Virus record (IMG/VR): IMGVR_UViG_3300044764_000010 | Coordinates: 1-60,525 of that record | Reading direction: 5' to 3' (one strand) | From: a virus | DNA: 60,525 nt | Shown here: positions 840 through 58,416 of the stretch, one piece after another | Numbering within the stretch: position 1 is the first letter of the stretch | How the letters are laid out: each line of letters starts with the position of its first letter | Program-made: the position numbers and the translations under genes | Notes under the pieces: model-generated | What the model was told of the DNA's origin: nothing | The model's input: only the letters and a program-made list of their open reading frames with translations | The model's database searches: none

Positions 840-868
840 TTGTGTCCCCCCTGTTTGGGGGGTAAGAT
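840..868 (+). promoter_or_regulatory. canonical dyad-spacer promoter (TTGTGT-C6-TGTTT-G6-TAAGAT)
   Basis: -35 at 840-845, 17-bp spacer at 846-862, -10 at 863-868. About 33-nt leader with ggagg RBS before the ATG at 902. Confidence 0.7.
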
Positions 869-901
869 ATTGGTAACACCTCACCACAACAACGGAGGCT
901 C

Positions 902-1144
902 ATGATGGCTCTCGACTACTTCCCCGCGATCGGCACCACGGTTGAGTACGTCGGGAGCCTGACCGACCAGCACGGCACGTACGTCGTCGCCGGCGAATGC
1001 GAGTGCGCCGGCTGCGAGGAGTTCGAGCGCACGGTCACCTCGTTCGCGGGGTACGCGCCGGGCTCCTGTTGCTGGCTCATCCTCGTGGGCAACGGCGTCC
1101 AGCTGGACCACGTCCGGCTCGCGTCGATCAACCTCGCGGCCTAG
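902..1144 (+). CDS. hypothetical protein (80 aa, Cys-rich)
   Basis: Track ORF. ggagg RBS 6 nt upstream. Normal amino-acid composition. Confidence 0.7.
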   Translation: MMALDYFPAIGTTVEYVGSLTDQHGTYVVAGECECAGCEEFERTVTSFAGYAPGSCCWLILVGNGVQLDHVRLASINLAA

Positions 1145-1198
1145 CCCGCTCGGCGGGGGCCACCCGGTCCTCGCCTCCTTTCCTGTCAGGAGATCACC

Positions 1199-1408
1199 GT
1201 GGATACCGAGCGCATCGGGTTTTCCCGCATCGAGGCGGGCCATTACCCCGAGGCCGTCACGTACGACCCGGACCGCGCGGCACAGGACTTGCCCCCGTGG
1301 GCCAACGATGACCGCGGCAGGTTCTACCTCGATTCCGAGGTCAAAGAGGTCCAGCCCGGCGAGTACGACGACAACGGTTTCCCGACCGACTGGAACGAGA
1401 GCACGTAG
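1199..1408 (+). CDS. hypothetical acidic protein (69 aa)
   Basis: Track ORF with GTG start and aggag RBS. Confidence 0.65.
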   Translation: MDTERIGFSRIEAGHYPEAVTYDPDRAAQDLPPWANDDRGRFYLDSEVKEVQPGEYDDNGFPTDWNEST

Positions 1409-1449
1409 GGGTGCCCATCGCGCACCCCGCCAACACGAGGAGGTGCGCG

Positions 1450-1686
1450 ATGGAAGATCTCTGGCTCTGGTTCGCTCGCTGCAGGGACCTCGACCCCGAG
1501 CTGTTTTTCCCGGCTACGGAGGTTGGCCCCGGCGCGGCGCAGGTCGAGGCGGCCAAGGCCGAGTGCGCGCTTTGCCCGGTCCGTGAGGACTGCCTCGAGC
1601 GGTTCATGGGCGAGGAGTTTGGCGTGTTCGGCGGGATGTCCGCCGGCGAGCGCAAGGCGGCTCGGCGTAAGGCTCGAGCCGCGTGA
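1450..1686 (+). CDS. whiB: WhiB-like Fe-S transcription factor
   Basis: ATG after aggagg RBS. Has C-x(n)-C-x2-C-x5-C (ARC...AECALCPVREDC) followed by GVFGGMSAGERK, the WhiB signature. Confidence 0.85.
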   Translation: MEDLWLWFARCRDLDPELFFPATEVGPGAAQVEAAKAECALCPVREDCLERFMGEEFGVFGGMSAGERKAARRKARAA

Positions 1687-1687
1687 C

Positions 1688-1726
1688 GGGGACGCAATAC
1701 CCGAACCATCTGGGTATTGCGTCCCC
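1688..1726 (+). terminator. 15-bp perfect hairpin whose 3' arm overlaps the -35 box and the first Cs of the next promoter
   Basis: ggggacgcaataccc (1688-1702) pairs with gggtattgcgtcccc (1712-1726). Confidence 0.65.
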
Positions 1727-1745
1727 CCATTTTGGGGGGTAAGAT
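1717..1745 (+). promoter_or_regulatory. canonical dyad-spacer promoter (TTGCGT-C6-ATTTT-G6-TAAGAT), leaderless geometry
   Basis: -10 ends at 1745 and the ATG is at 1752 (+7). No SD. Confidence 0.75.
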
Positions 1746-1751
1746 ACGAGT

Positions 1752-2318
1752 ATGACCAAGCATCGCAAGTCCACCTCGCCGGCCCGACTGTGTGCCGGAA
1801 TCGCTGCCGGCGCCGTTTTCATCGGCGTAGGTGTCGCCGGATTCATCCTCCCCGGGGATCCCGCCGACCGGCCCGCGGCTACCTCGCCGAGCATCTCGCC
1901 GGTTGAGCTGCCCGAGGTCATCACCGGCCACGCCTACCCCGCGGCCCGGATGGTTGAGCCCGAGGTTGCCGTTCCCGCTGCGCCCGTCCTCACCGAGTCC
2001 GTGAAGCCGGCCCCGGTCAAGGCGAGCACCGCGCCCAAGACCAAGACGGCCACCGCGCCGACCCCGCCCAAGACCGTCACCGGTGGTACCGGTGCCCGTC
2101 CGCCGGCGCGCTCGAGCATCCCCGTCGGGCCGGACCTCGAGCTCTATTGCACGAACGGCTACCAGCACGCGAACGGCACGTGCTCGAGCACGCCCGAGTA
2201 CCCGACGTTCTCGCAGCCCAACCCGAACTCGCCGTGCTCGGGCACCGCCTCGGCCTGCCTGGACGCGATCAGCGGCATCGTCAACCCCATCGCTGGCCTC
2301 CTCGGGTCCGGCTCCTAA
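1752..2318 (+). CDS. membrane-anchored Pro/Ala/Thr-rich protein with Cys-rich C-terminal domain
   Basis: Track ORF. Basic N-terminus, then a TM helix (LCAGIAAGAVFIGVGVAGFIL), then a low-complexity linker. Confidence 0.75.
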   Translation: MTKHRKSTSPARLCAGIAAGAVFIGVGVAGFILPGDPADRPAATSPSISPVELPEVITGHAYPAARMVEPEVAVPAAPVLTESVKPAPVKASTAPKTKTATAPTPPKTVTGGTGARPPARSSIPVGPDLELYCTNGYQHANGTCSSTPEYPTFSQPNPNSPCSGTASACLDAISGIVNPIAGLLGSGS

Positions 2319-2793: not shown

Positions 2794-2803
2794 GGAGCAC
2801 GCC

Positions 2804-2962: not shown

Positions 2963-2971
2963 CCCAAAACG

Positions 2972-3700: not shown

Positions 3701-5449
3701 GTGGACCCGAAGCGCATTGCCGAGATTCTCGCGGATCTTGCGAACGCGAGCGACGCCGATATCACAGCGGCTCTGGAAGCGATCAAGGCGCGAGGCACCG
3801 AGCTCGCCCTCGAGGACGCGACCAAGGAGGGCAACGAGGAGCTCACCGGCCTGGTTGCGCAGCGCAAGGCGTTCGCCGCCGAGGTCGCCAAGCGCGCCGA
3901 GGGCACCTCGCTTGCGGATGCACGCAACGCGGCCCTCGCCGAGCTGGACGGCTCGCACGATCCGGCCCGGGACAACATCCCGCAGCCGACCCCCGACAAC
4001 ACCAAGGACGTGCCGGACCCGGGTGCCGCCGGTGAGGTGCCGGGCGGGGACAACCCGGATGCGGCGCCCGAGGTGGACGACAAGGGGAAGCCGGTCAAGA
4101 AGACCGCACCCAAGTCGCGGACCGCGGCGAACATGCCCAAGATCAACGATGGGCGCTCCCCCGAAGCCCCGGAAACCGCGGGCACGGTGGCGATGCGGAC
4201 GCTCGTGCGCGGCGGCGTCCCGGGGTTCGAGGCCGGCACGCAGCTCGATTTCAACTCGTTCAAGAACGCCATGCGGGACCGGATCATTGCCGCGGGTGGC
4301 GAGGGCCGGCAGGACGTGGCGCACGTCGAGTTCACGTACCCCAAGGACCGGCAGCTCGGCGGCAACGCCAAGGACAACACCGACCGGATCGCCGCGGCCA
4401 AGGGCCCGGACGCGATCGTGGCCGCGGGTGGGCTCTGCTTGCCGCTCGAGGTCAAGTACGACATCAAGGTCCTCGGTGTCACCGACCGGCCCGTGCGCGA
4501 CGCGCTCACCCGGTTCGGTGTCGAACGAGGCGGCATCCAGTACCGCGCGCCGTTCGACGCGCTCGCCATGGCTACCGGCCTCGGCGTGTGGACGCAGGCC
4601 AACGATCAGGCCATCGTCATCCCGCCGGCGGACCCGGACACCAACGTCTACAAGTCGTGCCTCACGGTCGACTGCCCCGGCGTGCTCGAGGCGTCCATCT
4701 ACAGCACGTACATGTGCCTCGAGTTCCCGAATATGACCGCTCGGTTTGACACCGAGTGGGTGGGCGCCACGACCGAGGCCGCCATGGTGGCGTGGGCGCG
4801 GTTCGCCGAGAACCAGTTGATCTCGCGCATCTTCGCCGGCTCCAAGGTCGTCAAGGGCCTCGGTGGCAAGCTCTCGGCGATCGCCGATCTCCTCGCTACC
4901 TACGACCGCGTGATCAGCTACTACCGCTACCGCCATCGCCTCAACAGCTCGGTGAGCCTGCGGACGATCATGCCGCAATGGGTCATCGACATGCTTCGCA
5001 CGGACCTCGCGCGACGGATGACGATGGCATCGCCGGCCGAGCTGTTCTCGATCGCACAGGCGCAGCTCGAGGCATGGTTCAACACCCGCGGCGTCAACGT
5101 CACGTGGCACCTGGACGGGCTCGCCGGTGCCACCGTGAACGGCGTCGTCATCCCCGCACAGACCTACGCGGATCTCGCTGCAGGTCAGGCCATCCCCGAT
5201 TGGCCTACTTCGGTCGACTCGGTGCTGTTTGTCGAGGGTGACTGGCTGTTCCTCGATGGCGGCACGCTGGACCTCGGACTCGTCCGGGACTCGGCGCTCA
5301 ACCGTCGGAACCGCTACCAGACGTTTGTCGAGACGTTCGAGGGTGTCGCGTTCGACGGCAAGGAGTCGCTCCGTGTCGTCATGCCGCTCGAGCCGATCGG
5401 CTCGGCAGCGGGCACCAAGGCCCCGGCTGACTGGGACACCATCGCGTAA
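3701..5449 (+). CDS. major capsid protein (HK97-fold type) with about 190-aa N-terminal helical scaffold/delta-like region
   Basis: 582-aa track ORF, GTG start after ggaagggg. N-terminus is coiled-coil/acidic. The C-terminus (...LVRDSALNRRNRYQTFVETFEGVAF...) resembles capsid C-terminal strands. Position fits. Confidence 0.65.
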   Translation: MDPKRIAEILADLANASDADITAALEAIKARGTELALEDATKEGNEELTGLVAQRKAFAAEVAKRAEGTSLADARNAALAELDGSHDPARDNIPQPTPDNTKDVPDPGAAGEVPGGDNPDAAPEVDDKGKPVKKTAPKSRTAANMPKINDGRSPEAPETAGTVAMRTLVRGGVPGFEAGTQLDFNSFKNAMRDRIIAAGGEGRQDVAHVEFTYPKDRQLGGNAKDNTDRIAAAKGPDAIVAAGGLCLPLEVKYDIKVLGVTDRPVRDALTRFGVERGGIQYRAPFDALAMATGLGVWTQANDQAIVIPPADPDTNVYKSCLTVDCPGVLEASIYSTYMCLEFPNMTARFDTEWVGATTEAAMVAWARFAENQLISRIFAGSKVVKGLGGKLSAIADLLATYDRVISYYRYRHRLNSSVSLRTIMPQWVIDMLRTDLARRMTMASPAELFSIAQAQLEAWFNTRGVNVTWHLDGLAGATVNGVVIPAQTYADLAAGQAIPDWPTSVDSVLFVEGDWLFLDGGTLDLGLVRDSALNRRNRYQTFVETFEGVAFDGKESLRVVMPLEPIGSAAGTKAPADWDTIA

Positions 5450-7356: not shown

Positions 7357-8156
7357 CCACGCCCATCCCGATCCCCGACGGCCCGCCCGCGGACTACACA
7401 TCCATCCTGTGTGGTCCGTGGGCGCAGCCGTCTGACATCCCCGAGGCGTACCGCGGGAACCTGTCCGACGGGCAGTGGCAGACGCTCATCCTGTACGCGT
7501 CCGAGATCCTGTACCACCTCTCGGCCCGACGCTGGCTCGGCATCGGCTGCGAGGAAATCACGACGTTCGCGAGTTCGCCGGCAGCGATCGGCACGGGCTC
7601 GTGGCCGTTCGCCGCGGCATGGTCGTGTGGGTGCTGGATCCCGGGTGGGGCCTGGTTCGGGTGGGGCTACGGCCCGATGTTCACCGGTGAGCACCCGCGG
7701 CCTACCGCGCTCAAGCTGGATAGCTCGAGCACCGAGGTCACGTCGGTGAGCACCGCAGCAGGCGTGCTGGATCCCGCGGCCTACCGTCTGTCGAGCTCGG
7801 GCTACCTCGAGCGCATCGACGGCGGCACGTGGCCCGTGTGCGGTGAGAACGGCCCCACGATCGTCGCAGCGGCCCGCGGCATCGCTCCCCCGCTCGGCGG
7901 CGTCATGGCCTGCGTCCAGTTCGTCATCGAGCTCTACAAGCAGTGGGCGAACGATCCGACGTGCGCGATCCCGAACCGCGCTACCTCGGTTTCCCGGCAG
8001 GGCGTCACGGTCACGCTGGACACCTCGGTATTCCTGGACAAGGGCCGCACGGGCATCCGGGGCGTTGACACGTGGCTCCTCGCCGAGAACCCCAAGGGTC
8101 GCCGCCGCGGTGGCTCGGTCTGGTCGCCGGATGTTCCCTCGGGCAGACGCGGTTAG
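7353..8156 (+). CDS. head-to-tail adaptor-like protein
   Basis: GTGA overlap. The motif ASEILYHLSARRWLGIGCEEIT...RP...VSRQGVTVT resembles actinophage adaptor proteins. Confidence 0.55.
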   Translation: MTTPIPIPDGPPADYTSILCGPWAQPSDIPEAYRGNLSDGQWQTLILYASEILYHLSARRWLGIGCEEITTFASSPAAIGTGSWPFAAAWSCGCWIPGGAWFGWGYGPMFTGEHPRPTALKLDSSSTEVTSVSTAAGVLDPAAYRLSSSGYLERIDGGTWPVCGENGPTIVAAARGIAPPLGGVMACVQFVIELYKQWANDPTCAIPNRATSVSRQGVTVTLDTSVFLDKGRTGIRGVDTWLLAENPKGRRRGGSVWSPDVPSGRRG

Positions 8157-8192
8157 CTCCCCCTGACTTGGGGGGCATGATCCAGCTACGAT
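8153..8192 (+). promoter_or_regulatory. degenerate dyad-spacer promoter (TTAGCT-C5-TGACTT-G6-CATGAT) plus downstream TACGAT box
   Basis: 17-bp spacer is retained. The TACGAT at 8187-8192 ends 7 nt before the ATG at 8199. Confidence 0.45.
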
Positions 8193-16734: not shown

Positions 16735-16931
16735 GGGATGCTCGCAGACACTCGTTGCAGCGCGGCAGTAAAACTCTTCTCGATCGCTATCAGTTCACCT
16801 GCCGGGCTGTATACGGACCAGGTTCCCGTAGTCCGTCGGCTTAGATCATGGCCTTCCACAATCCACATGCCGGGACAGATACACGAGTGCTCCATCCGGG
16901 CAAGAAGCGCGCCCCGCTCGGTCTGGTACAT
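16731..16931 (-). CDS. hypothetical protein (66 aa)
   Basis: ATG overlaps the upstream stop (TGATG). MYQTERGALLARMEHSCICPGMWIVEGHDL... Local GC looks lower by eye. Confidence 0.5.
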   Translation of the reverse strand: MYQTERGALLARMEHSCICPGMWIVEGHDLSRRTTGTWSVYSPAGELIAIEKSFTAALQRVSASIP

Positions 16932-17134
16932 CAGACGATCCGGCCGTTTCGGTAGACCCGGACGATGCGGTCCTCGTGCCAGCACGTCACGTCGGTGTCT
17001 ACGGTGTTCTCGCTGATGGAGAGGCCGTAGGTGCGGACCTGCTCCGCTGACCAGCCGTTGAGCGGCTTGACCGTCACCTTGCGGCACCGAGAGGTGCGCT
17101 TGTAGGTGACTCCGGTCTTCTTCTCTGTGGCCAT
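16931..17134 (-). CDS. hypothetical protein (67 aa)
   Basis: The second ATG of track ORF 16931-17140 lies exactly 7 nt after the minus-strand TAAGAT box. Confidence 0.6.
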   Translation of the reverse strand: MATEKKTGVTYKRTSRCRKVTVKPLNGWSAEQVRTYGLSISENTVDTDVTCWHEDRIVRVYRNGRIV

Positions 17135-17140: not shown

Positions 17141-17169
17141 ATCTTACCCCCCAATGTGGGGGGAGGCAA
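17141..17169 (-). promoter_or_regulatory. canonical dyad-spacer promoter on the minus strand (TTGCCT-C6-ACATT-G6-TAAGAT), leaderless geometry
   Basis: The reverse complement of 17141-17169 matches the family. The ATG at 17134 is +7 from the -10 box. Confidence 0.7.
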
Positions 17170-17172: not shown

Positions 17173-17571
17173 TTACGCGGGGACGATTATCCGCGATTCG
17201 GGCTTCTCCTTGCTGTGCTGCCCATCGGCTGTGAGGTACGTCCACTCGCGGCCCATCAAGAGGAACGGCTCCTCGAACGGGTCCTGTGAATCCCAGAGCA
17301 GGTAGCCGCACGGTTGCGACCAGTCCGAGTTGCCGTGCACGGACCGGCCACCGCGCGGCGCCGCGTTGTGCGTGTCCGGGTCCAGGGCCAGGAGGTTGAA
17401 CAGGGCATCTCGGAACGGGTCGTATTTCCGGCCACCCATCCGCTTGGGTAGCCGGTGGTGTGCGGAGAAGGTGGCGGGATTGAGCACGCGGCCGCTCACC
17501 TCGCAGTACCCTCCGCATCGCTCGTATAGCGCTTCCCGAATTTTGTTCCAGTTCGGCTTGGTGACCTTCAC
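17173..17571 (-). CDS. HNH endonuclease
   Basis: GTG after agagagg. Contains CGGYCEVSG...HHRLPKRMGG...LALDPDTHN (HNH core). The upstream part of track ORF 17173-17745 is junk. Confidence 0.8.
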   Translation of the reverse strand: MKVTKPNWNKIREALYERCGGYCEVSGRVLNPATFSAHHRLPKRMGGRKYDPFRDALFNLLALDPDTHNAAPRGGRSVHGNSDWSQPCGYLLWDSQDPFEEPFLLMGREWTYLTADGQHSKEKPESRIIVPA

Positions 17572-17584: not shown

Positions 17585-17613
17585 TTGTGTCCCCCCGATG
17601 AGGGGGGTAACAT
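17585..17613 (+). promoter_or_regulatory. canonical dyad-spacer promoter (TTGTGT-C6-GATGA-G6-TAACAT), leaderless geometry
   Basis: -10 ends at 17613. ATG at 17621 (+8). No SD. Confidence 0.75.
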
Positions 17614-17620: not shown

Positions 17621-18181
17621 ATGAACACAGCAAAGCCAGGGGAAGCCGGCAGGGCCCCCACTGCCGAGGAGGTCCTCGAGGCCGAAAAGGTCCTCGCGGC
17701 CGCGGGCAAACTCGTAACCGTCGAACTCTGGGTGCGCAAAGACATCTACACCGCAGCCCTCGAGATGGCAGAGAGCCAGGGTGAACGCCTCGCCGCAGTA
17801 GCTCGCGCCTCGCTGTTCTCTGCAGCCGCCGAGGCTAAGCCGCTCACCGGCTGGATCATCATCCGTGACGAGAAGTGGATCGGAGAAAGAACCTACCCAA
17901 ACAGTGCGGCAGCGATCGCCGCGGGCAACGAGGCGTTCGCCGACGCCGGCGAAGCCTGGTCGGTCTACCCCGTCGATGCGCCCGAGGTAATCGAACTCGG
18001 CGTGCTCAAGCCCAAGCCTCGTCCCTACGGTGAGGAACGAGAGCGGATCCGGTTCAAGGTGCCGGCCGACACCAAGCGGGACGCGACCAAGCGCATCGAA
18101 GAGTCGGGCGAATCCGTCCCCGCTGCGCTCGAGCGCTACCTCCTCAAGTACCTCGAGCACGGCACCATCGCCCACGCGTAA
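17621..18181 (+). CDS. hypothetical protein with C-terminal ribbon-helix-helix-like motif
   Basis: In-frame ATG inside track ORF 17330-18181. The C-terminus IRFKVPADTKRDATKRIEESGESVPAALERYLLKYLE looks CopG/Arc-like. Confidence 0.65.
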   Translation: MNTAKPGEAGRAPTAEEVLEAEKVLAAAGKLVTVELWVRKDIYTAALEMAESQGERLAAVARASLFSAAAEAKPLTGWIIIRDEKWIGERTYPNSAAAIAAGNEAFADAGEAWSVYPVDAPEVIELGVLKPKPRPYGEERERIRFKVPADTKRDATKRIEESGESVPAALERYLLKYLEHGTIAHA

Positions 18182-21082: not shown

Positions 21083-21115
21083 AACGCCCCCGGGGTCCCC
21101 CTCGCCGGGGGCGTT
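21083..21115 (+). terminator. second hairpin downstream of ssb
   Basis: aacgcccccgg / ccgggggcgtt, 11-bp stem. Confidence 0.5.
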
Positions 21116-21129
21116 GCCATGTCCGGTAC

Positions 21130-21158
21130 TTGTGTCCCCCCGAATTGGGGGGTAAGAT
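21130..21158 (+). promoter_or_regulatory. canonical dyad-spacer promoter (TTGTGT-C6-GAATT-G6-TAAGAT), leaderless geometry
   Basis: -10 ends at 21158. ATG at 21166 (+8). Confidence 0.75.
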
Positions 21159-35716: not shown

Positions 35717-35938
35717 ATGTTGACCAAGCCTTGGCCCGCCAATCACATCGTGGACGGCAGCGTCCACGTATGGGAAGCATCGGCATTCGGCCACACCGCC
35801 CACCTCGCCACCTACGACGGTCACCTCAACCTGTTCGCGGCGCCGTATCGCGCGGACGGCATCGAGGGCGTCCAGCTCATTGACGATCACGGCCTCATCC
35901 ACAAGCAGGACCTCGGGGTCCCGCGCAACCAGTTCTGA
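35717..35938 (+). CDS. hypothetical protein (73 aa)
   Basis: Track ORF. Confidence 0.65.
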   Translation: MLTKPWPANHIVDGSVHVWEASAFGHTAHLATYDGHLNLFAAPYRADGIEGVQLIDDHGLIHKQDLGVPRNQF

Positions 35939-38627: not shown

Positions 38628-38655
38628 ATGTATCCCCCCTGGTGGGGGGTATGTT
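38628..38655 (+). promoter_or_regulatory. orphan dyad-spacer promoter-like element (ATGTAT-C6-TGGT-G6-TATGTT) with no + strand gene downstream
   Basis: 16-bp spacer. Points into the 3' end of the minus-strand translocase operon. Confidence 0.4.
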
Positions 38656-38719
38656 GATCTCACTTCTCAGAGGTCTCAGGTCTGCGCACATTACGTGTGA
38701 GGGCCTGAGACTGAGACGG

Positions 38720-40615: not shown

Positions 40616-41408
40616 CGGTGGCCTCCTTGATCAGTCGCAGGGCCCGACCGGATCCAACGGACCAGCGGGTGATGACGGACCGCTTGGTGACTGGTCCGCT
40701 CTTGGACTCGGACCGGATCCACTCCACGATCTGCGAGTCCTGCGGTACCGGGCTCGAGGTGGTGTTGCCTGCGGTCCGGGGTCGGATGGTCCGGGCAGCT
40801 GCAGCGGTCCGCTTGGGCGCGGTCCGTGCCGGGCGGTCCGGGCTCGAGACCAACCGCGTGATCTCGGACCGGTCCGCGGGCTCGGGCGTGGGCCCGATGG
40901 GTTCGGCGTAATCGGACCAGCCGGACCGGGCCCGCCCGAACCGTCCACGGTCCGCACCGTTGCGCGGACCCAACTCGGTCCGCTCGGGTACCGCGGACTC
41001 GGGGACCATCGGCGGTCCGGCCTTGGACTCGCCGAGCGCGTGCCGATGGAGGACCGAGAGCATCGCGGCAAGGATGGCCGGCGGGATCGCACCAAGAACC
41101 GCGGCGAGCACGGACCGGGTAGAGATCCAGTGGTCCGCCACGTTGGCCGCGAGGGAGAGCACGATGCCCACAAGCGCGAGGGCTCGTGCCTGGTTCATTG
41201 CGGCGGACCGCTCGCGGCGGATCCAGAGGTCCGTCCCGAACGCCACCGCGGCGTCCAGGGTGAGCGGGAACAGCCACGCGAGGTTGCCGAATCCGGCGAT
41301 CTCGGCGAGATGGCGAACCGACTCGAACGAGATGACTGCAGCCGAGGCGACCGGCAGGGTGGCGAACAAGCGCAGGCGCGAGACGCTCATGGGGGGCAGG
41401 CGTCGCAT
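40599..41408 (-). CDS. DUF2637-like integral membrane protein with disordered C-terminal half
   Basis: ATG 7 nt after aaggag. VISFESVRHLAEIAGFGNLAWLFPLTLDAAVAFG matches my memory of DUF2637. About 4 TM helices. Confidence 0.65.
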   Translation of the reverse strand: MRRLPPMSVSRLRLFATLPVASAAVISFESVRHLAEIAGFGNLAWLFPLTLDAAVAFGTDLWIRRERSAAMNQARALALVGIVLSLAANVADHWISTRSVLAAVLGAIPPAILAAMLSVLHRHALGESKAGPPMVPESAVPERTELGPRNGADRGRFGRARSGWSDYAEPIGPTPEPADRSEITRLVSSPDRPARTAPKRTAAAARTIRPRTAGNTTSSPVPQDSQIVEWIRSESKSGPVTKRSVITRWSVGSGRALRLIKEATDGQED

Positions 41409-41410
41409 TG

Positions 41411-41848
41411 TCAGTCTCCTTGGTTCCCGCCGGCGGGAAGCTCGCGCCTCGTGGTCCACCGGTCGTAGACGGTCATGCCGTTGTCGGTCTGCAGGTACGG
41501 CAACATGACCTGGTCAAGCGCCACCATCTCGGTCTCGATGATGGCGAGTTGCGCCCGGACCCAATCCCGCAGGATTCGCCACGCGACCCGCTCGGCGTGA
41601 TCAAGGGTCTGGTACCGCTTCTCGACTCGCTGCTTGATCAGGACCGCTTGGACTGCGCCGGTCCTGACCGGCAGCAAGTAAACGTACGACTCGCCGGCGA
41701 CCACGATGGTGAACATCATCGAGACCATGCGGCCCTGCGGGTCGTACTCGGACCCGATACCGCGGGCCCCGGCGCGGACCAGGTCCTTGGTGATCTCGTT
41801 GGCGGACCGGACCGCGGCAACGGTGGTCGTGTAGTTCGCGAGCGTCAT
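41411..41848 (-). CDS. hypothetical protein (145 aa)
   Basis: ATGA overlap with the upstream gene. Confidence 0.7.
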   Translation of the reverse strand: MTLANYTTTVAAVRSANEITKDLVRAGARGIGSEYDPQGRMVSMMFTIVVAGESYVYLLPVRTGAVQAVLIKQRVEKRYQTLDHAERVAWRILRDWVRAQLAIIETEMVALDQVMLPYLQTDNGMTVYDRWTTRRELPAGGNQGD

Positions 41849-42072
41849 TCCGGGTCACCCGGCTCTACGACGTAGTGCGGGTTCACGGCGCCGACGTTGT
41901 AGCGGACCGCGTTCCAGTTGGACTCGCGAGTCCGCCGGCGGACCGCATCCCGCAGGAACATGGAGACCACGTAGGCGGCCACGACCAGACCGGCCGCGAG
42001 GCCGTCCCCGCGGACCAGCGAGACCGCGAGCCCAATGAGGGCGACGGCCGCAACGATGGATCGGATTCTCAT
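41845..42072 (-). CDS. small membrane protein (75 aa)
   Basis: Internal ATG of track ORF 41845-42183, preceded by aaggag. TM segment IVAAVALIGLAVSLV...LVVAAYVVSMF. Confidence 0.6.
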   Translation of the reverse strand: MRIRSIVAAVALIGLAVSLVRGDGLAAGLVVAAYVVSMFLRDAVRRRTRESNWNAVRYNVGAVNPHYVVEPGDPE

Positions 42073-42078
42073 CTCCTT

Positions 42079-42106
42079 AGCGTAAGGCACCCCCCGCCTT
42101 GGGGGG
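42079..42106 (-). promoter_or_regulatory. hairpin (C6-AAGGC-G6) plus 5 nt plus TACGCT box, upstream of the minus-strand operon
   Basis: On the minus strand TACGCT occupies 42084-42079, exactly 7 nt before the ATG at 42072. No clear -35 box. Confidence 0.4.
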
Positions 42107-42150: not shown

Positions 42151-42179
42151 TTGTGTCCCCCCGATGAGGGGGGTAAGAT
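42151..42179 (+). promoter_or_regulatory. canonical dyad-spacer promoter (TTGTGT-C6-GATGA-G6-TAAGAT)
   Basis: Same core as the 17585 copy. About 35-nt leader with gaggag before the ATG at 42220. Confidence 0.7.
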
Positions 42180-42219: not shown

Positions 42220-42600
42220 ATGTCGACCACCACCGCCACCCGGACCCTCTCGGACGCCGTCGCCGAATCGGACACCGAGATCCGCACGGTGTCCACCACC
42301 CACCTCCTGCAGCTGCAGGCCGAGGGTTGGGAGTTCCGCGGGTTCGCCTCGATCGAGGCCGAGCTCAACCGGCGCGCGGCGGACCAGAGCAACCCGCGGT
42401 TCCAGCACATGGTTTCCCTCGAGGCCCGGATCAACGCCGAGTACGCGAGTCAGGTGTGCGGCATCGACGCCGACACGCGGGCCCGCGCCACCGCTCGCAA
42501 GGCCAAGGCGCAGCGCGCGCTTTACGCCCTCGTGAGTGACCTCGGCCCGAAAGAGGGTGCCGCCTACGGCGAGTACCGCCGGACCGCGTACGCCGGCTGA
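42220..42600 (+). CDS. hypothetical protein (126 aa)
   Basis: gaggag RBS. Normal composition. The competing ORF 42192-42539 is R/G/P junk. Confidence 0.7.
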   Translation: MSTTTATRTLSDAVAESDTEIRTVSTTHLLQLQAEGWEFRGFASIEAELNRRAADQSNPRFQHMVSLEARINAEYASQVCGIDADTRARATARKAKAQRALYALVSDLGPKEGAAYGEYRRTAYAG

Positions 42601-43254: not shown

Positions 43255-43283
43255 TTGTCTCCCCCCTCATCGGGGGGTACGAT
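43255..43283 (+). promoter_or_regulatory. canonical dyad-spacer promoter (TTGTCT-C6-TCATC-G6-TACGAT)
   Basis: The spacer is the inverse of the GATGA copies. The leader carries a gaggaggg RBS before the ATG at 43319. Confidence 0.7.
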
Positions 43284-43318: not shown

Positions 43319-43639
43319 ATGCGCAACACGATCATCGATCAGGCACCCGAGGGCCAGTACTGGGAGTGGGTGTTTCTCAACGCGGACGGCTACGACGTGA
43401 CCGGCGACATCGGGAGCGACGGCAAGGCCACGTTCGCCCGAGTCATCATCACCGAGGGCCGCGCGGATCTCCTCGGCAGCTACGTCGTCACGTTCCGGCG
43501 CATCGAGGGCATCTGGACCATCCAGCTCGACTCGGACCTGTTCGACTTGAGCGGCTACGACCCCGAGGCGTACGCGGACCCGAGGGACTTCCGGATCCTG
43601 GACGCCGACCTCACCGAGTTCCTCGCCGCGGTCCGATGA
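43319..43639 (+). CDS. hypothetical protein (106 aa)
   Basis: ATG after gaggaggg. Confidence 0.7.
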   Translation: MRNTIIDQAPEGQYWEWVFLNADGYDVTGDIGSDGKATFARVIITEGRADLLGSYVVTFRRIEGIWTIQLDSDLFDLSGYDPEAYADPRDFRILDADLTEFLAAVR

Positions 43640-44089: not shown

Positions 44090-44332
44090 ATGCCCGAGGA
44101 GATTTTCGAGGTACCCGCCGGCGCGATGAACATCATCGAGGTCGACCTGTCCGAGATCACGCGCCACTCGGTGGACGAGGAGGGTGTGACCACCACGCCC
44201 GCGTACCTGCTGGACCTTTTGATCGTGCCGCACGGCGAGGTGCACCCGCTCGGGCGCGCCTCGTTCGTGGTCGATCGCGATGAGCTCGCCGCCATCGTCG
44301 CCGGCATCGTCGAGGGGATGGCCCTGTCGTGA
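44090..44332 (+). CDS. hypothetical protein (80 aa)
   Basis: ATG after aggaga. Confidence 0.65.
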   Translation: MPEEIFEVPAGAMNIIEVDLSEITRHSVDEEGVTTTPAYLLDLLIVPHGEVHPLGRASFVVDRDELAAIVAGIVEGMALS

Positions 44333-44697
44333 TCGCCGACGAATTCGACCTGTCCGGCGCGGTGTGTGCGCAGACGGACGCCGAGGTGTTCTTCCCTGAG
44401 AAGGGCGGGCAACACACGCTCCCGAAGTCGATGTGCCTCGGTAGACCCGAGGGACATCGACGCACGCCGCCGTGCCCCTGCCGCTTCACGTGCTTGCTCA
44501 TCGCGCTCGAGCACCGTGACCCCTACGGCGTCTGGGGTGGCATGAGCGAGAAGGAACGCCGCGCGTTGGCCCGCGAGCCACTGCAGGGCTGCGAGCCGCC
44601 GCCCCCGCCGGTCCAGCGCCGGCCGACGTGCACGCGCGGCAGGGCGCAGATCCACCCGTTGTCGAACGGCCGCCGTAACCACGCCACCCGAGTCTAG
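44329..44697 (+). CDS. divergent WhiB-like protein with extra Cys cluster and long Pro/Arg tail
   Basis: GTGA overlap. Contains CAQTDAEVFFPE...MCLG...PPCPCRFTC...DPYGVWGGMSEKERR. Confidence 0.65.
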   Translation: MIADEFDLSGAVCAQTDAEVFFPEKGGQHTLPKSMCLGRPEGHRRTPPCPCRFTCLLIALEHRDPYGVWGGMSEKERRALAREPLQGCEPPPPPVQRRPTCTRGRAQIHPLSNGRRNHATRV

Positions 44698-44700: not shown

Positions 44701-44729
44701 TTGTGTCCCCCCATTTCGGGGGGTACGAT
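44701..44729 (+). promoter_or_regulatory. canonical dyad-spacer promoter (TTGTGT-C6-ATTTC-G6-TACGAT)
   Basis: Starts 4 nt after the whiB-like stop. About 25-nt leader before the ATG at 44761. Confidence 0.7.
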
Positions 44730-44760: not shown

Positions 44761-44913
44761 ATGCCCAAGGCACCCGTCCTTACCGCCGAGGAGCGCAAGG
44801 AGATCCGCGCTACCCATCGCGTCATCGAGAGCAACCGCTCCTCGGCCGACAAGCAGGCCACCGCCCGAGGCATCCGCCCGGACTCCGTGCGCGACGTTCG
44901 TCGGGCCACCTGA
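44761..44913 (+). CDS. small HTH-like protein (50 aa)
   Basis: In-frame ATG of track ORF 44701-44913. LTAEERKEIRATHRVIESNRSSADKQATARGI. Confidence 0.5.
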   Translation: MPKAPVLTAEERKEIRATHRVIESNRSSADKQATARGIRPDSVRDVRRAT

Positions 44914-47824: not shown

Positions 47825-47833
47825 CGTGTACCC

Positions 47834-47863
47834 CTCCCCCAAACCGGGGGGAGAGACTAGGAT
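47834..47863 (+). promoter_or_regulatory. variant element: hairpin CTCCCCC-AAACCG-GGGGGAG, 4 nt, TAGGAT; leaderless geometry
   Basis: TAGGAT is at 47858-47863. ATG at 47870 (+7). The hairpin sits where a -35 box would be. Confidence 0.45.
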
Positions 47864-47869: not shown

Positions 47870-48208
47870 ATGGACACCGAACCGATTACCACTTACGCCT
47901 CCTGGCATCCCGCCACCGTGCTCCTGCCGGACCGCTCGGTTCTCCATCGCACCCGGGTCTACGCCACCGATCAGGGGCTCAAGGTGTTCACGCGCCGGCC
48001 CGAGGATGGCGTTTCACCGCAGTGGGAATCGCTCATCGTGTTCGCCGAGACCTCCAAGCCGGACCTGACCGTCCGCAACAACGGGGTCGACTTCCAGACC
48101 GAGGACGGCCTTGTGGTCGTCACCCCGATGGGCGCGTGCAAGTGCGGCGGCCTCGGGCGCTGGATCCCGAAGTGGGCAAGCAACGTAGCCGAGTGGCCGG
48201 CAGCATGA
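47870..48208 (+). CDS. hypothetical protein (112 aa)
   Basis: Track ORF. Confidence 0.7.
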   Translation: MDTEPITTYASWHPATVLLPDRSVLHRTRVYATDQGLKVFTRRPEDGVSPQWESLIVFAETSKPDLTVRNNGVDFQTEDGLVVVTPMGACKCGGLGRWIPKWASNVAEWPAA

Positions 48209-50331: not shown

Positions 50332-52941
50332 ATGCCCTCGAGAGACAAAGGCTCGTTCTGGACCCGGAACCGCTCGAGCAAGAAGACCGGCGGATCCGGG
50401 CCGGCCCGTGTTGCGTCCGGCCGGTACATCGACCTGAACGACCGCAACGTGGTCAACACCCTGTCCGCTACCAAGATGGCGTGGCAGCAACTCGCATGGA
50501 ACTACCGCGACTTGATCGGCGAACTCGGCGCCGCGCTGCGCCTCAAGGCCAACATCATCTCCAAGGTCCAGTTCATCGCTGCCGCGGTAGTCGACGGCGA
50601 GGACGAACCGCGCCGGCTCACCGGGGATCCCGAGAAGGACGTGATCAAGGGCGAGGACGAGGCGCCCGATGAGCCGATCCTCGCCCAACACGTCATCGAT
50701 GCCGCCATCGACTGCCTTAGCAGGCTGCCCTTTCAAAACGGCTACAGCTTCCAGGGGATGATCAGTCAGTCTTTCGATGTCCCCGGTGAGTGCTGGTTGC
50801 ACGGCTACTCGGACGACGATGGTGATGAGGCGTGGGAGGTTCTCTCCACGAGCGAGGTCATCGCCGGCACCGGCGGCCTGTCGATCATGGAGGTGCCCGG
50901 CAAGGCCGCGCGCCCCATCGACATCAAGACCGAGTCGCTCATCCGCCTCCACGTGCCGCATCCGCAGTGGAAACAACTCGCCGACTCCCCGATGCGCATG
51001 TTGCTCGACCAGTGCGAAGACGTGGTGCTCGTGGGCCGCGAGATCCGCGCGGCGGCCCGCTCGCGCATTGCGGCCAACGGGTTCCTCCTCGTGCCCAACG
51101 AGCTCTCCATGAGCAAGCGCGACGACCCCGAGATCACGCCGGAAAACGACACGTTCCAGGCCGATCTCACCGCGGCCATTACCGCGCCCATTGCCAACGA
51201 GGGTGACGCCGGCGCCGTGGTGCCCATCGTCATCCGCGGCGAGACTGAGGACCTCGAGCAATTCCGGCACGTCACGATCGACCGTGAGGCGTCCCCCGAG
51301 CTCCTCGCCAAGCAGGCAGCCGGCCTCGGTCGCATCGCCTCGGGGATCAACCTGCCGTCCGAGATGATGGACACGGGCAGCGGCGGCCTCGGCTCGGTCA
51401 ACCACTGGACCGGGTGGCTCGTGGACGCGACGACGTTCAAGAACTACATCGAGCCGGACTGCCGGCTGATCGCCGACTCGATCACCATGAGCTACTTCCG
51501 GCGGACGCTGCGCCTGCCGATCACCGAGGGCGGCTACGGCCTGACCAAGGACGAGGCCCTCTCGGTCACCATCTGGTACGACGGCGGCAACGTCACCGAG
51601 AACGCCAACCGGTCCAAGGACGCCGACGACGCCATGACCCAAGGGGCGATCTCGTTCGAGGCGTACCGCGCGGCCAAGGGGTTCGGCGAGGAGGACGCGC
51701 CGAGCGAGGAGGACTTGCAGCAAATCCAGATGGTCAAGTCTGCGCCGTCACCGGACATCGCCGGCCAACTCGCCGCAATCCTCCTCGGGGTGCGCGAGCC
51801 CAAGCCGGCCCCGGTCCAGCCCCCGCAGGTCATCCAGGGGCAGGCCGTGCGCGAGCCGGCGCAGATCGGTCCAGGGGCCAAGCAGGGGCAGGTACCCGAC
51901 GCACCCGTACCGACCACGCAGCCGGCGCCGGTCCGGGCGTCCGCGGCCAAGGAGCCCACCATCATCACGGGCGAGGTGCTCGCCGAGATCGACAAGGAGC
52001 TACGGGAGCGCCTGCGCCAAGCCGGTGATGATGCGCTCCTGCGTGCCATCGAGAAGGCCGGCAACCGGATCAAGGCCAAGGCGCAGAGCAACACCGAGGT
52101 AGCCGCGCTGGTCAACGGCCTCCCTGCCACCGAGGCCGGCGCTGCAGTCGGGCCCGAGCGGGTCGCCGAGCTCGGCCTCACCGAGGACCTCCTCCTTGCC
52201 GCGGCGTTCGCTGCCCTGTCCGCGAGCTTCGCCGTCTGGACCGCGGCCGCCATCAAGACGGCCATCAAGACCGTGGCCGGCATGGTGCCGGTCCCGCTCA
52301 CCAAGAGCTCGGCGATGGCGCAGGCGATGAACGCTCGGATCCCCTCGGCCTGGAAACGGTTCGAGGGGTCGCTCCGCAAGCGCGCGCTCGACAAGATGTA
52401 CGGCCGCGCCGGGGACGAGATGCGGGGCGAGGTGCCCGACACCATCGTGCTGCCGGGGGACATCCGCGAGGCGCTCGCGGAGATCGGTGGCGGGGGCAGC
52501 GGCCTTGCGCTCGGCGGGGACATCCTCCGCACCATCGATGACGTGGCCGAACCGATCGGGTTCACGTGGCGCTACGGCATCACCCCGCGGGCCCGCGCGT
52601 TCGAGCCGCACCTCAAGCTCGCCGGCAAGCGGTTCAACGGGTTCGAGGACGAGGCCCTCACGCCGCCGGCCGGCTACGAATGGGTGGGCGCGCGGATGGA
52701 ACCGGGCGATCACAACGGCTGCATGTGTGACTACGTGATGGCCTGGATGCTTGACGAGGCCGATGAGGTGGCGCGCGGTGACGTGCTGCAGGAGTCGGGC
52801 GCGATGTCCGCCGAGCGGATGCTCGCCGACCTGGACGATGCCGCTGGTCGCTCGGGAACGACCGCTCAACGCACGCGGGACCAGCGGGACCGCATCGTGG
52901 CCGTGCAAGAGAACTGGATCAACCGGAAGGCGCTCAAGTGA
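50332..52941 (+). CDS. portal protein fused to a MuF/SPP1-gp7-like head morphogenesis domain
   Basis: 869 aa, gaggga RBS. Portal-sized N-terminal region. The C-terminus GDHNGCMCDY resembles the MuF H-x-N-C-x-C motif. Confidence 0.75.
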   Translation: MPSRDKGSFWTRNRSSKKTGGSGPARVASGRYIDLNDRNVVNTLSATKMAWQQLAWNYRDLIGELGAALRLKANIISKVQFIAAAVVDGEDEPRRLTGDPEKDVIKGEDEAPDEPILAQHVIDAAIDCLSRLPFQNGYSFQGMISQSFDVPGECWLHGYSDDDGDEAWEVLSTSEVIAGTGGLSIMEVPGKAARPIDIKTESLIRLHVPHPQWKQLADSPMRMLLDQCEDVVLVGREIRAAARSRIAANGFLLVPNELSMSKRDDPEITPENDTFQADLTAAITAPIANEGDAGAVVPIVIRGETEDLEQFRHVTIDREASPELLAKQAAGLGRIASGINLPSEMMDTGSGGLGSVNHWTGWLVDATTFKNYIEPDCRLIADSITMSYFRRTLRLPITEGGYGLTKDEALSVTIWYDGGNVTENANRSKDADDAMTQGAISFEAYRAAKGFGEEDAPSEEDLQQIQMVKSAPSPDIAGQLAAILLGVREPKPAPVQPPQVIQGQAVREPAQIGPGAKQGQVPDAPVPTTQPAPVRASAAKEPTIITGEVLAEIDKELRERLRQAGDDALLRAIEKAGNRIKAKAQSNTEVAALVNGLPATEAGAAVGPERVAELGLTEDLLLAAAFAALSASFAVWTAAAIKTAIKTVAGMVPVPLTKSSAMAQAMNARIPSAWKRFEGSLRKRALDKMYGRAGDEMRGEVPDTIVLPGDIREALAEIGGGGSGLALGGDILRTIDDVAEPIGFTWRYGITPRARAFEPHLKLAGKRFNGFEDEALTPPAGYEWVGARMEPGDHNGCMCDYVMAWMLDEADEVARGDVLQESGAMSAERMLADLDDAAGRSGTTAQRTRDQRDRIVAVQENWINRKALK

Positions 52942-56556: not shown

Positions 56557-56885
56557 CGCCGATAGTCGCCCTCGGTGGCATAGGCGGGCTCGCGCTCGGC
56601 ATCGCCTCGTTCGTGATCGGTGTCATCGCGTTACGGGCCAAGCGCAAGGACCGGCAGGTGGTAGAGCTGCGTGAAGCGCAGGACACGAGCGTGGCGTTGT
56701 TCCGATGGAAGTACCGTGTAACCACACTCGCCGCGCAACGCGGGTGGGACACAGACCCGGATTGGCCTCCCCTGCCCCTGGAAGCTACCGCCGAGTACCT
56801 GCGCGGACGGATCAAGGCGTCCGACAACCAGGAGATCAAAGAGCTCCTTGACCTCGTAACCAAGCTCACCAAGGGCGACAAATGA
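56553..56885 (+). CDS. membrane-anchored protein (110 aa)
   Basis: ATGA overlap. N-terminal TM helix. Confidence 0.65.
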   Translation: MTPIVALGGIGGLALGIASFVIGVIALRAKRKDRQVVELREAQDTSVALFRWKYRVTTLAAQRGWDTDPDWPPLPLEATAEYLRGRIKASDNQEIKELLDLVTKLTKGDK

Positions 56886-57670
56886 CCATCCGCATAGAGG
56901 ACTCCCCGCCGGCCAAGCCGAGGCGCCGCACGCCGAGCACGCCGATCCTCCTTGGCATCGTCATCATCGCCCTCATCGCCGCGTCCACGATGTTCGTGGT
57001 TGTCGTCGTCACGGGCCAGAATTCTGAGAACCAGCGAGCCAACGTCGTCACCGACACCGCGCCGGCTGTGCTCACCCTCGATGTCCTGTGCAAGCGCACT
57101 GACCAACTCGGCACGGACCTCAAGACCGTGGGTGCGTGCGGCGAGAAGGTCGACAAGGCCAAGACTGCAGTCGAAGGGCAGCCGCTCCCCGCGGTGGCGG
57201 CAGGGCTGCAGCGGGACGACGTGGTGGCCATCGTCCAGGCGCAGATCTCGGGCAAGGTCGTCACGTCCGACCAGGTCATGCGGATGATCGTGGACGTGTA
57301 CAACGCCAACCGGCCGGCCAACGGTCCGGCGGGTCCGGGCCCGACTTCGGAGCAGGTGCTCAACGCCGCGCGTGAGGTGTGTGCGAATGATCGATGCGTG
57401 GGCCCTAGGGGAGCGGACGCGCCACCGGCGACGGCCGCGGAGATCCTTGCGCAGGTCACGAACTTTTGCGGGGTGGCGAGCGAGCCATGCCGCGGGCCCA
57501 AGGGCGAGAAGGGCGATAAAGGGGACGAGGGCGACCAGGGTGAACCTGGAATCCAGGGCGCGCCCGGACCGACCTGCGAGCCCGGCTACCACGTCACGGA
57601 CGCGATGAGCGGCGATCTACCCCCACAACAGATCCGCGTGTGCGTGGCGGACACCCCGCCCGGTGGCTAG
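56882..57670 (+). CDS. membrane-anchored protein with short collagen-like G-X-Y run
   Basis: ATGA overlap. TM helix at aa 21-45. GPKGEKGDKGDEGDQGEPGIQGAPGP at aa 205-230. Confidence 0.7.
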   Translation: MTIRIEDSPPAKPRRRTPSTPILLGIVIIALIAASTMFVVVVVTGQNSENQRANVVTDTAPAVLTLDVLCKRTDQLGTDLKTVGACGEKVDKAKTAVEGQPLPAVAAGLQRDDVVAIVQAQISGKVVTSDQVMRMIVDVYNANRPANGPAGPGPTSEQVLNAAREVCANDRCVGPRGADAPPATAAEILAQVTNFCGVASEPCRGPKGEKGDKGDEGDQGEPGIQGAPGPTCEPGYHVTDAMSGDLPPQQIRVCVADTPPGG

Positions 57671-57677
57671 GTGGGGA

Positions 57678-57706
57678 TTGTGTCCCCCCACAAAGGGGGG
57701 TAAGAT
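57678..57706 (+). promoter_or_regulatory. canonical dyad-spacer promoter (TTGTGT-C6-ACAAA-G6-TAAGAT), leaderless geometry
   Basis: -10 ends at 57706. The second ATG, at 57713, is +7. Confidence 0.75.
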
Positions 57707-57712
57707 ATGGGT

Positions 57713-57958
57713 ATGAACCTCACCGGCACCCCGCTCAAGTCACTCAAGCTCGCCATCGTTCGCGAACTGGAAGACCGGCTACTCCTCGGCCTGACCGCCG
57801 AGCGCCTTGTGAAGCGCACCCCGGGCGATGAGCACGAGGTGACCGAGGCCCTGCAGGAGCTCGAGGCCGAGGGCAAGGTCCGCTCGGACATCCACCGATT
57901 CGAAGGCGAGCGGTTCTACGTCACCCGCGGGCCGGCCCCGAAGACCACGCGTCGCTGA
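57713..57958 (+). CDS. small winged-helix DNA-binding protein (81 aa)
   Basis: LKLAIVRELEDRLLLGLTAERLVKRTPGDEHEVTEALQELEAEGKVRS looks wHTH-like. Monocistronic, between a promoter and a terminator. Confidence 0.6.
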   Translation: MNLTGTPLKSLKLAIVRELEDRLLLGLTAERLVKRTPGDEHEVTEALQELEAEGKVRSDIHRFEGERFYVTRGPAPKTTRR

Positions 57959-57968
57959 TCGCAGACAG

Positions 57969-58006
57969 CAGAAACCCCCCGTCTCCCTGAAGGCGGGGGG
58001 TTTCTG
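57969..58006. terminator. bidirectional terminator between convergent genes
   Basis: cagaaaccccccg / cggggggtttctg, 13-bp stem. Confidence 0.8.
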
Positions 58007-58028
58007 GGTTCACCGACAGGACGAGACC

Positions 58029-58373
58029 TTACTCGGTCTCGGGTGATTCGTCTCCCGACTCGCCGGCTTCCTTGGCCGCCTTGGACCGGGTCGCACGCTT
58101 GGGCTTGACGGCCGGCTCCTCGGTGCCCTCCTCCTTGAGCTTTTCCTCGAGCTCCGCGACCGGCGAGCTCGAGGTCTCGTGCGCGCCGGGGACACCCGAG
58201 AGGATGTGCAACGCGATCTCGAGCCGCTGCAGGGCCGCGGTGACCGCCGGCTCGCTTGGGTCCAGGAGGTCAAGCACGTTGCGCTCGAAATCGGTGAGCT
58301 GTTCCTTGAACGCGGCGAGCGGCGTGTTGGGCTCGGTCTTGGTGGTTGAGAAGCGGTCACCTGGTCGACTCAT
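58029..58373 (-). CDS. hypothetical helical protein with acidic/basic tail (114 aa)
   Basis: Track ORF with gggagga RBS. The only gene of this minus-strand island. Confidence 0.65.
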   Translation of the reverse strand: MSRPGDRFSTTKTEPNTPLAAFKEQLTDFERNVLDLLDPSEPAVTAALQRLEIALHILSGVPGAHETSSSPVAELEEKLKEEGTEEPAVKPKRATRSKAAKEAGESGDESPETE

Positions 58374-58387
58374 CGCGGGATCCTCCC

Positions 58388-58416
58388 TTGTATCCCCCCG
58401 GTATGGGGGGTAAGAT
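58388..58416 (+). promoter_or_regulatory. canonical dyad-spacer promoter (TTGTAT-C6-GGTAT-G6-TAAGAT)
   Basis: Divergent from the minus-strand gene that starts at 58373. The leader carries gaggag before the TTG at 58458. Confidence 0.7.

Follow-up and report, generated by a model that had tools for sequence, protein, structure and literature searches.

A conserved GC dyad as the spacer of predicted SigA-type promoters in a family of uncultured phages

Actinobacteria are known for a leaderless arrangement in which the start codon stands at position +1 of a SigA-type promoter. Phage P22 Arc acts at Pant through an operator between the -35 and -10 boxes, its half-site centres lying about one helical turn apart, and at the promoters of MerR, CueR, SoxR and BmrR a dyad is centred on the spacer, where the dimer can be bound at the same time as RNA polymerase; for BmrR the site is C-rich and then G-rich, and MerR-type promoters require overlong spacers of 19-20 base pairs (bp) that the activator untwists. 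The dimers p4 of phi29 and Mor and C of Mu repress promoters whose core they overlap and activate late promoters devoid of a -35 box from further upstream. An operator inside the core promoter has been described for CopG at Pcr (PMC2724298), 12-bp palindromes at five loci and four promoters for gp33 of phage BPs (PMC4557955), and genome-wide repressor sites, the stoperators, for Cluster A phages (PMC6550527). Leaderless SigA-like promoters have been predicted in Cluster O mycobacteriophages, which also carry 17-bp palindromes (TGTTCGG-N3-CCGAACA) of unknown function (PMC4351075), as is the function of 18-bp inverted repeats in Microbacterium phages of Cluster EG (PMC7302621). The subject here is a GC dyad of six cytosines and six guanines, C6-N5-G6, in the IMG/VR virus record IMGVR_UViG_3300044764_000010, analysed over its whole length of 60,525 nucleotides (nt; hereafter the window), where the dyad itself forms the spacer of a set of predicted promoters.

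Eleven sites in the window, already listed in an earlier sequence-only reading of this DNA, match TTGYVT-CCCCCC-N5-GGGGGG-TAMSAT without a single mismatch, and TTG and the 17-bp spacer are invariant among all of them. Dinucleotide-preserving shuffles give an expectation of 0.00 for the full motif and of 0.02 for the bare C6-N5-G6 dyad, which occurs 12 times, the twelfth perfect copy (42090-42106) having been overlooked before; it has no -35 box, and the dyad is in register with flanking -35 and -10 boxes at 11 of the 12 copies. When set against a map of 98 genes called by codon bias, which leaves 6.7% of the window intergenic, all 12 perfect dyads fall wholly between genes (chance about 8.5e-15), as do 18 of 19 looser dyads of the form C5+...G5+. 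The dyad centres are A/T-rich (76% A+T against 33% for the genome), and each of the eleven sites aims at the next gene, both as first proposed; six of them point at a leaderless ATG and five at a gene with a Shine-Dalgarno leader. These sites, termed class-1 promoters here, are as follows.

840-868, plus strand: TTGTGT-C6-TGTTT-G6-TAAGAT, leader with Shine-Dalgarno sequence, gene 902-1144
1717-1745, plus strand: leaderless, ATG at 1752, 6 nt past TAAGAT
17141-17169, minus strand: leaderless, gene 16931-17134
17585-17613, plus strand: leaderless, gene 17621-18181, the first of the ERF/SSB operon
21130-21158, plus strand: leaderless, gene 21166-21471
35682-35710, plus strand: leaderless, gene 35717-35938, directly 3' of the terminase module
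42151-42179, plus strand: with leader, gene 42220-42600
43255-43283, plus strand: with leader, gene 43319-43639
44701-44729, plus strand: with leader, gene 44761-44913, directly 3' of the WhiB-like gene 44329-44697
57678-57706, plus strand: leaderless, gene 57713-57958
58388-58416, plus strand: with leader, family-conserved gene 58458-58967, divergent from the minus-strand gene 58029-58373

The layout of these sites strongly supports reading them as the promoters at which the phage genome is transcribed by host RNA polymerase with its primary, SigA-type sigma factor. Each would consist of a -35 box TTGNNN, a spacer of 17-18 bp and a -10 box TAnnnT, with transcription predicted to start 6-7 nt further on, often exactly at the start codon. 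The flanks had been taken for a SigA-type pair at 17 bp, and the start codons bear this out by standing where transcription would begin, an ATG following the -10 hexamer after 6-7 nt at 6 of the 11 sites (1717, 17141 on the minus strand, 17585, 21130, 35682 and 57678). When each of the 98 genes was checked for a TAnnnT whose end lies 5-9 nt ahead of the start, nine genes came up, at a distance of 6-7 nt, and a C/G dyad lies upstream of all nine, namely the six class-1 cases and genes 8199, 32167 and 47870. More distant relatives have an exact TTGACA as their -35 box. A generic sigma-70 scanner did not pick up the sites of the window because it demands 9 of 12 matches to the Escherichia coli consensus (TTGACA/TATAAT).

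The same architecture recurs throughout a phage family. Two scans of IMG/VR with the exact pattern returned 19 and 51 stretches; 50 of 55 loci compared are related to the window at the protein level, and in IMG/VR the pattern picks out the window's phage family almost exclusively. Among one-per-species genomes of 185,579 bacteria and archaea, the exact form TTGNNT-C6-N5-G6-TANNAT has no match, TTGACA-type copies escaping this pattern. A wider pattern (TTGNNN, then C6-N5-G6 allowing no more than one mismatch in the arms, then TAnnnT) collected 107 unique family sites, 79 with perfect arms and 45 with TTGACA, the spacer measuring 17 bp in 83 and 18 bp in 24. A search blind to the dyad (TTGNNN, 17 or 18 nt, TAnnnT, 6 or 7 nt, ATG) over 1.6 Mb of family DNA gave 70 candidates, 54 of them (77%) with an outer dyad 5 bp or longer, as compared with 3% when spacers are shuffled; in control actinobacterial loci the count was 0 of 6. 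Family sites without a perfect dyad still have spacers that open with CCC and close with GGG. At the level of single sites, the relatives L012 and L014 keep the arms of the 1717 promoter with altered centre and hexamers, and the orthologue of the 17585 promoter in L008 differs in its centre.

The arms had been described as invariant, which holds within the window's own clade, whereas other clades have different arms; in capsid-anchored loci the design persists to a capsid identity of about 40%, with arms of the following kinds.

CCCGCG...CGCGGG and CCCG...CGGG: L056, L080, L077/L282, L079, L089
CCCCG(T)...(A)CGGGG: L075, L093, L076
CTCCC...GGGAG: L079
CCCAC...GTGGG: L095, L096
CGGGGG...CCCCCG, the reversed form: L104

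Sampling in these other clades covered one to four sites in each genome; the outer core mostly stays constant within a genome and the inner positions and centre vary; a looser pattern for the CCCCG clade returned mostly chance matches. The suggestion that selection acts on dyad symmetry is supported on two counts, the arms exceeding the variable hexamers in conservation (1.0-2.0 bits per position against 0.2-0.7 bits at the variable -35 and -10 positions) and the arms of other clades differing yet remaining complementary. When sites found without reference to the dyad are aligned, pairing reaches 89.6% against 85.8% in shuffles (0 of 500 as high) and the covariation score 0.127 against 0.096 (5 of 500), a modest signal because most arms never vary. 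Single arm mismatches cluster at the innermost pair, and a strand bias of the kind expected of G-U pairing in RNA was not significant (C to T on the left in 14, G to A on the right in 6). Most centres start with A and end with T, so that the usual form is effectively 7-3-7, and many of the family's sites form perfect palindromes of 17 bp (CCCCCCAC-G-GTGGGGGG).

Besides the class-1 promoters, the window holds dyads in other settings, including the three weaker copies that the sequence-only reading had described (8153-8181, 32131-32159 and 38628-38655, the last with a 4-nt centre).

8153-8192, plus strand: class 2 site, C5-TGACTT-G6, 11 nt, TACGAT, 6 nt, ATG at 8199; tail module
32131-32159, plus strand: variant ATCACT-C5-N7-G5-TATTAT, 7 nt, ATG at 32167; the dyad is the spacer, without a -35 consensus
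47830-47863, plus strand: variant C5-AAACC-G6, 6 nt, TAGGAT, 6 nt, ATG at 47870
26526-26542, no strand assigned: dyad C5-TCGTGC-G6, within the 19 nt that separate the DnaB stop from the lysin start, a putative promoter
38628-38655, plus strand: weak copy ATGTAT-C6-TGGT-G6-TATGTT, spacer of 16 bp; the intergenic region is convergent and has no gene downstream of the site
42090-42106, no strand assigned: perfect C6-GCCTT-G6 dyad without -35/-10 flanks, located 12 nt ahead of the Shine-Dalgarno sequence that serves the leftward FtsK/DUF2637 operon

The variants at 8153, 32131 and 47835 (within the 47830-47863 site) are leaderless and conserved in relatives. The first has no TTG -35 box at 17 bp, an arrangement shared with L012, L011 and L018; the second heads an operon of a P-loop kinase, the small terminase and TerL, with relatives in L001 and L005; the third lies 3' of a T-tract terminator, heads an operon running to the portal and MuF-like genes, and recurs in L054, L016, L030 and L042. 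The distance from dyad to -10 box in variant sites is 0, 6, 8 or 11 nt and follows no single helical phase. At the DnaB-lysin junction, relatives have CACTCA-C6-N5-G6-TGAGTG, then TAGGCT and a Shine-Dalgarno sequence; across L001 5420-5448, L004 9098-9126, L005 6766-6794, L019 504-532 and L007 2466-2495 the core is lengthened to a 12-bp stem, with TAGGCT or TACGCT 9 nt downstream and then a Shine-Dalgarno sequence, and the stem flanks covary between genomes (CACTCA/TGAGTG or GCTCTC/GAGAGC). It had been proposed that the class-1 sites serve nearly all non-late transcription units. This is roughly right for the window, whose lysis, packaging, portal and tail modules have dyad variants without a -35 box, but in several relatives class-1 promoters stand directly upstream of capsid genes. 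The split between class-1 and variant sites suggests, as a hypothesis, an early/late distinction built on one dyad, in which the variant dyads may form a late-promoter class. The FtsK-like/DUF2637 operon (38720-42075) is the genome's only multi-gene unit without a class-1 promoter.

When compared with the leaderless SigA promoters of Actinobacteria, the phage sites share the TTGACA-like -35 box, TAnnnT, the 17-18 bp spacer and a start codon 6-7 nt past the -10 box, but their spacer is not free sequence, being a conserved GC dyad that outweighs the variable hexamer positions in information. They resemble Arc at Pant and CopG at Pcr in that a dyad or pseudo-dyad lies in the core promoter, there for a small oligomeric repressor that hinders RNA polymerase; those, however, are single loci with a known protein, whereas the phage dyad stands at every promoter, across a family, and its factor is a candidate only. 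A MerR-type promoter was rejected, as the spacers measure 17-18 bp and no MerR-family match was found in Pfam and PHROGs searches of about 80 of the 98 predicted proteins. The many short intergenic sites, with several promoters under one phage protein, recall BPs gp33 and the Cluster A stoperators, but those phages are temperate, the protein is an immunity repressor and its sites hold no fixed place in the spacer. A temperate immunity operator set was likewise set aside: neither an integrase nor an immunity-repressor family was recognised among the scanned proteins, and the dyad is absent from the distant prophages in Pseudonocardia, Blastococcus and Acidimicrobiia that capsid-anchored searches of bacterial genomes retrieved. 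The Cluster O and EG repeats are alike as short invariant dyads with a variable centre, in many copies and mostly intergenic or associated with starts; they are nevertheless separate from predicted SigA promoters, with some copies inside genes, and for Cluster O the paper shows separate elements (PMC4351075), which removes them as a precedent for a spacer that is itself the dyad. The class-1/variant split is similar to that of phi29 p4 and Mu Mor/C, although the variant spacings do not share one helical phase. The parts are therefore known, namely leaderless SigA promoters, core-promoter operators, MerR spacer dyads, multi-site repressors and dispersed palindromes. What is new is that a conserved GC dyad itself is the spacer of essentially every promoter, and that it is conserved and co-varies by clade across a large uncultured phage family. 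In agreement with the first impression, no earlier description of this architecture was found in the literature searched or in cultured phages; a consensus-promoter BLAST query of cultured phages gave nothing relevant, with the proviso that the low-complexity filter may mask C and G runs.

The reading we favour, tentatively, is that the GC dyad is a spacer operator through which a dimeric DNA-binding protein, encoded by the phage, controls all the promoters. A homodimer would contact each arm with one recognition element, the distance from one arm centre to the other being 11 bp or about one helical turn, and the A/T-rich centre would escape direct contact; an unconserved A/T-rich middle is typical of operators that are not contacted there. 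From its position between the -35 and -10 boxes, the bound protein would govern RNA polymerase at all transcription units together, the likeliest effect being a genome-wide shut-off or a timing switch. Co-evolution of arms and factor would explain why the arms of other clades are different yet symmetric and largely uniform across a genome, and a concerted symmetric change of arms at the promoters of one genome is what a trans-acting dimer predicts. The palindromes with a 1-nt loop, the mostly uniform outer arms and the coupling to the -10 box favour a dimer site over a hairpin.

Proteins that might bind the dyad, as candidates, are the following.

23549-24085, plus strand: candidate dyad-binding factor, N-terminal helical hairpin and C-terminal winged helix-turn-helix
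17621-18181, plus strand: candidate factor with two beta-alpha-alpha units (ribbon-helix-helix-like topology), low-confidence model
1411-1686, plus strand: WhiB-like protein, Pfam PF02467, E = 6e-16
44329-44697, plus strand: WhiB-like protein, Pfam PF02467, E = 1.7e-15

On its structural model, the product of 23549-24085 is the best candidate for the dyad factor. Its proposed winged helix-turn-helix is recovered as a PadR/ArsR/MarR-type fold (mean predicted local distance difference test score, pLDDT, 79), the best Foldseek matches being PadR, ArsR/SmtB and MarR repressors (E about 3e-3, probability 1.0). The protein has 23 homologues on family contigs, a SERPRRGEL segment with three arginines is invariant across the 24 homologues of the set, and its gene lies just upstream of DnaB in every relative. 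The other proposals fared less well: the model of the 17621 protein, suggested to be of ribbon-helix-helix type, is too poor (pLDDT 47) for a fold call or fold search, and the 57713 protein, suggested as a winged helix-turn-helix regulator, is not conserved beyond the nearest relative. Both WhiB-like genes were confirmed by Pfam, and in the sampled loci they are limited to near relatives. Four candidates searched against the PDB had no sequence match among its solved structures. The 44329-44697 protein is extended at its C-terminus by a proline-rich stretch that includes the segment TRGRA; this segment resembles an AT-hook core and, speculatively, might target the A/T-rich dyad centre.

Several points weigh against a spacer operator for a dimer. 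The factor is represented by candidates only; Pfam and PHROGs recognised no helix-turn-helix or ribbon-helix-helix regulator in the scanned proteins, which leaves the WhiB-like pair as the only transcription factors recognised. As the 23549 gene always stands beside DnaB, a role in replication, as an initiator, is equally possible for its product; dyad promoters occur in 13 of 14 DnaB-anchored loci with this gene and in 0 of 27 without it, an association confounded by phylogeny, and the scans anchored on the 23549 protein and on DnaB reached the C6/G6 clade only. One operator at every promoter cannot by itself yield temporal classes. The inner arms of L056 include CCCGCGA/TCGCGGG beside CCCGCGC/GCGCGGG, compensated within one genome, and such compensated inner arms, like the extended arms of the DnaB-lysin junction, also fit selection on nucleic-acid structure, while the near-fixed register to the -35 box could mean direct reading by polymerase.

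It is unlikely, in our estimate, that the dyad works in cis through the structure of its RNA or DNA, either as a read-through RNA hairpin serving as 3'-end stabiliser, processing or pause site or operon insulator, or as a DNA hairpin or cruciform that would switch the promoter off. The dyads would form stable RNA folds of -13 to -17.6 kcal/mol per site, their complementarity survives arm change between clades with inner positions compensated within some genomes, the DnaB-lysin junction of relatives has its 12-bp stem with covarying flanks, and a bidirectional terminator at about 57971-58012 is likewise built on a C6...G6 stem. The promoter dyads, however, have no T-tract although T-tract terminators exist in the genome, and a structural role is further opposed by the many perfect 17-bp palindromes, whose 1-nt loop is impossible for a hairpin, by outer arms that are mostly uniform per genome, which a purely structural role does not need, by the coupling of nearly all dyads, displaced ones included, to a -10 box and start codon, and by mismatches tolerated without significant strand asymmetry. 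Cruciform extrusion, one of the two mechanisms offered by the sequence-only reading, is physically unlikely, as 6-bp arms are short for it. The dyad as a terminator was rejected outright, TAAGAT-type hexamers following the stem in place of a T-tract and real T-tract terminators lying elsewhere. An N4-type hairpin promoter was also set aside, the flanks being a host-type -35/-10 pair and no RNA polymerase family having been matched among the large proteins, two of which have no PHROGs match at all, so that absence is unproven.

We consider it similarly improbable that the C-run and the G-run are read directly by the transcription machinery, as an element of promoter specificity or strength without a separate operator, the candidates being SigA holoenzyme with RbpA or CarD, or with a phage WhiB-like protein on sigma region 4. 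At almost every site the C-run directly adjoins the -35 box and the G-run the -10 box, these outer boundaries stay fixed even where inner positions decay (C5-N7-G5), imperfect family sites still begin with CCC and end with GGG, and a dyad stands at every predicted leaderless promoter; the WhiB-like pair are the only recognisable transcription factors, and their class works through SigA region 4. Yet symmetric covariation of the arms, including the reversed L104 form, is unexpected from two independent contacts, the WhiB genes are limited to near relatives within the sampled loci, the variant-site dyads are displaced 6-11 nt from the -10 box, and no preference of sigma-70-type promoters for GC-rich spacers is known. 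A bolder proposal, which appears more doubtful still, makes the dyad an obligatory third promoter element at which a family-encoded dimer binds with host SigA polymerase, marks the phage promoters and runs the whole early-to-late programme: a dimer on the spacer would throttle the early and middle units, a displaced dimer would stand in for the lost -35 box at 8153, 26526, 32131 and 47835, and the arm sequence would co-evolve with the factor between clades. Very improbable, finally, is that the 29-bp units are module boundaries for homologous exchange of cassettes between related phages, with the promoter role secondary. The units do head cassettes that differ strongly in gene content between relatives, and many downstream genes have no homologue even in contigs with 70% capsid identity, but linkers need no dyad symmetry, no fixed -35/-10 geometry and no start codon at +1, and the hexamers and centre vary, leaving only 12 invariant homopolymer bases.

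The window is bounded by a 127-bp exact direct repeat (1-127 and 60399-60525), and one gene crosses it, 60330-60524 running on as 1-366; repeat and gene together indicate a circular assembly and a complete genome of about 60.4 kb. The capsid protein has 297 homologues, many on contigs of 58-63 kb.

3701-5449: major capsid protein, by similarity to annotated capsids of cultured phages

No close cultured relative was found among 50,697 phage records (megablast, blastn, tblastn) and there is no relatedness to these at the DNA level, the nearest capsids of cultured phages being about 36% identical; a Microbacterium phage record is unrelated to the window except for distant capsid similarity. PHROGs identified the major tail protein, portal, a MuF/protease-like protein, TerL, DnaB and an FtsK-like protein, and Pfam the ERF recombinase, the single-strand-binding protein SSB, a GH25 lysin and a DUF2637 protein; further genes encode a P-loop nucleotide kinase, an HNH endonuclease and a YdjM-like membrane protein, and the window contains neither a tRNA nor an Rfam RNA match. 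The WhiB genes and the distant prophage relatives point to a host in Actinomycetota.

If the operator reading is true, the 29-bp unit would be a compact design in which a strong promoter of host type contains its own control site, reused for each transcription unit and conserved in a large family of approximately 60 kb actinobacterial phages known from metagenomes only, and would give a testable handle on the gene regulation of uncultured phages. The arms C6/G6, CCCG/CGGG, CTCCC/GGGAG and CCCAC/GTGGG would provide a natural operator series for studying the co-evolution of factor and site, and the promoters a potential switchable leaderless set for high-GC Actinobacteria. The pattern is also usable as a sequence signature of the family.

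Hairpins of other kinds accompany the promoters. Separate hairpins lie upstream of the promoters at 840 (a GC hairpin, directly upstream), 1717 and 21130 (21091-21117), and bidirectional terminators with A and T tracts lie near 16540, 38570, 47780 and 57971. The last of these (57971-58012) has a 16-bp stem (AGAAACCCCCCGCC.../...GGCGGGGGGTTTCT) with flanking A/T tracts, a C6...G6 pair and a longer loop. The weak copy at 38628 is followed (38628-38720) by conserved TCTCA(A/G)GTCTC repeats that make a long hairpin, found also near 1566 in L030, 11468 in L042 and 4055 in L043 and without an Rfam match; it could be a small RNA, an array of binding sites or part of a bidirectional terminator.

Two leftward genes on the minus strand, 17173-17571 and 58029-58373, have their starts 14-18 nt away from a rightward class-1 promoter, on its -35 side. 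Both possess a Shine-Dalgarno sequence of their own, one encodes an HNH-like Cys/His pattern and the other an acidic tail, and since no leftward promoter is evident for either, the dyad would be situated within their 5' leader or immediately upstream of it. Small, cysteine-rich, family-conserved proteins head several units (21166-21471, 902-1144, 59351-59830 and 47870-48208), their CxxC pairs suggesting zinc ribbons; the only family match among them is that of 59351-59830 to phrog_5984, of unknown function. The order of the genes is unusual in that the large terminase (33373-35166) stands about 15 kb from the portal gene (50332-52941), the interval being filled by many small unknown genes and by the leftward FtsK-like/DUF2637 module, which is of a kind found in actinomycete conjugative elements.

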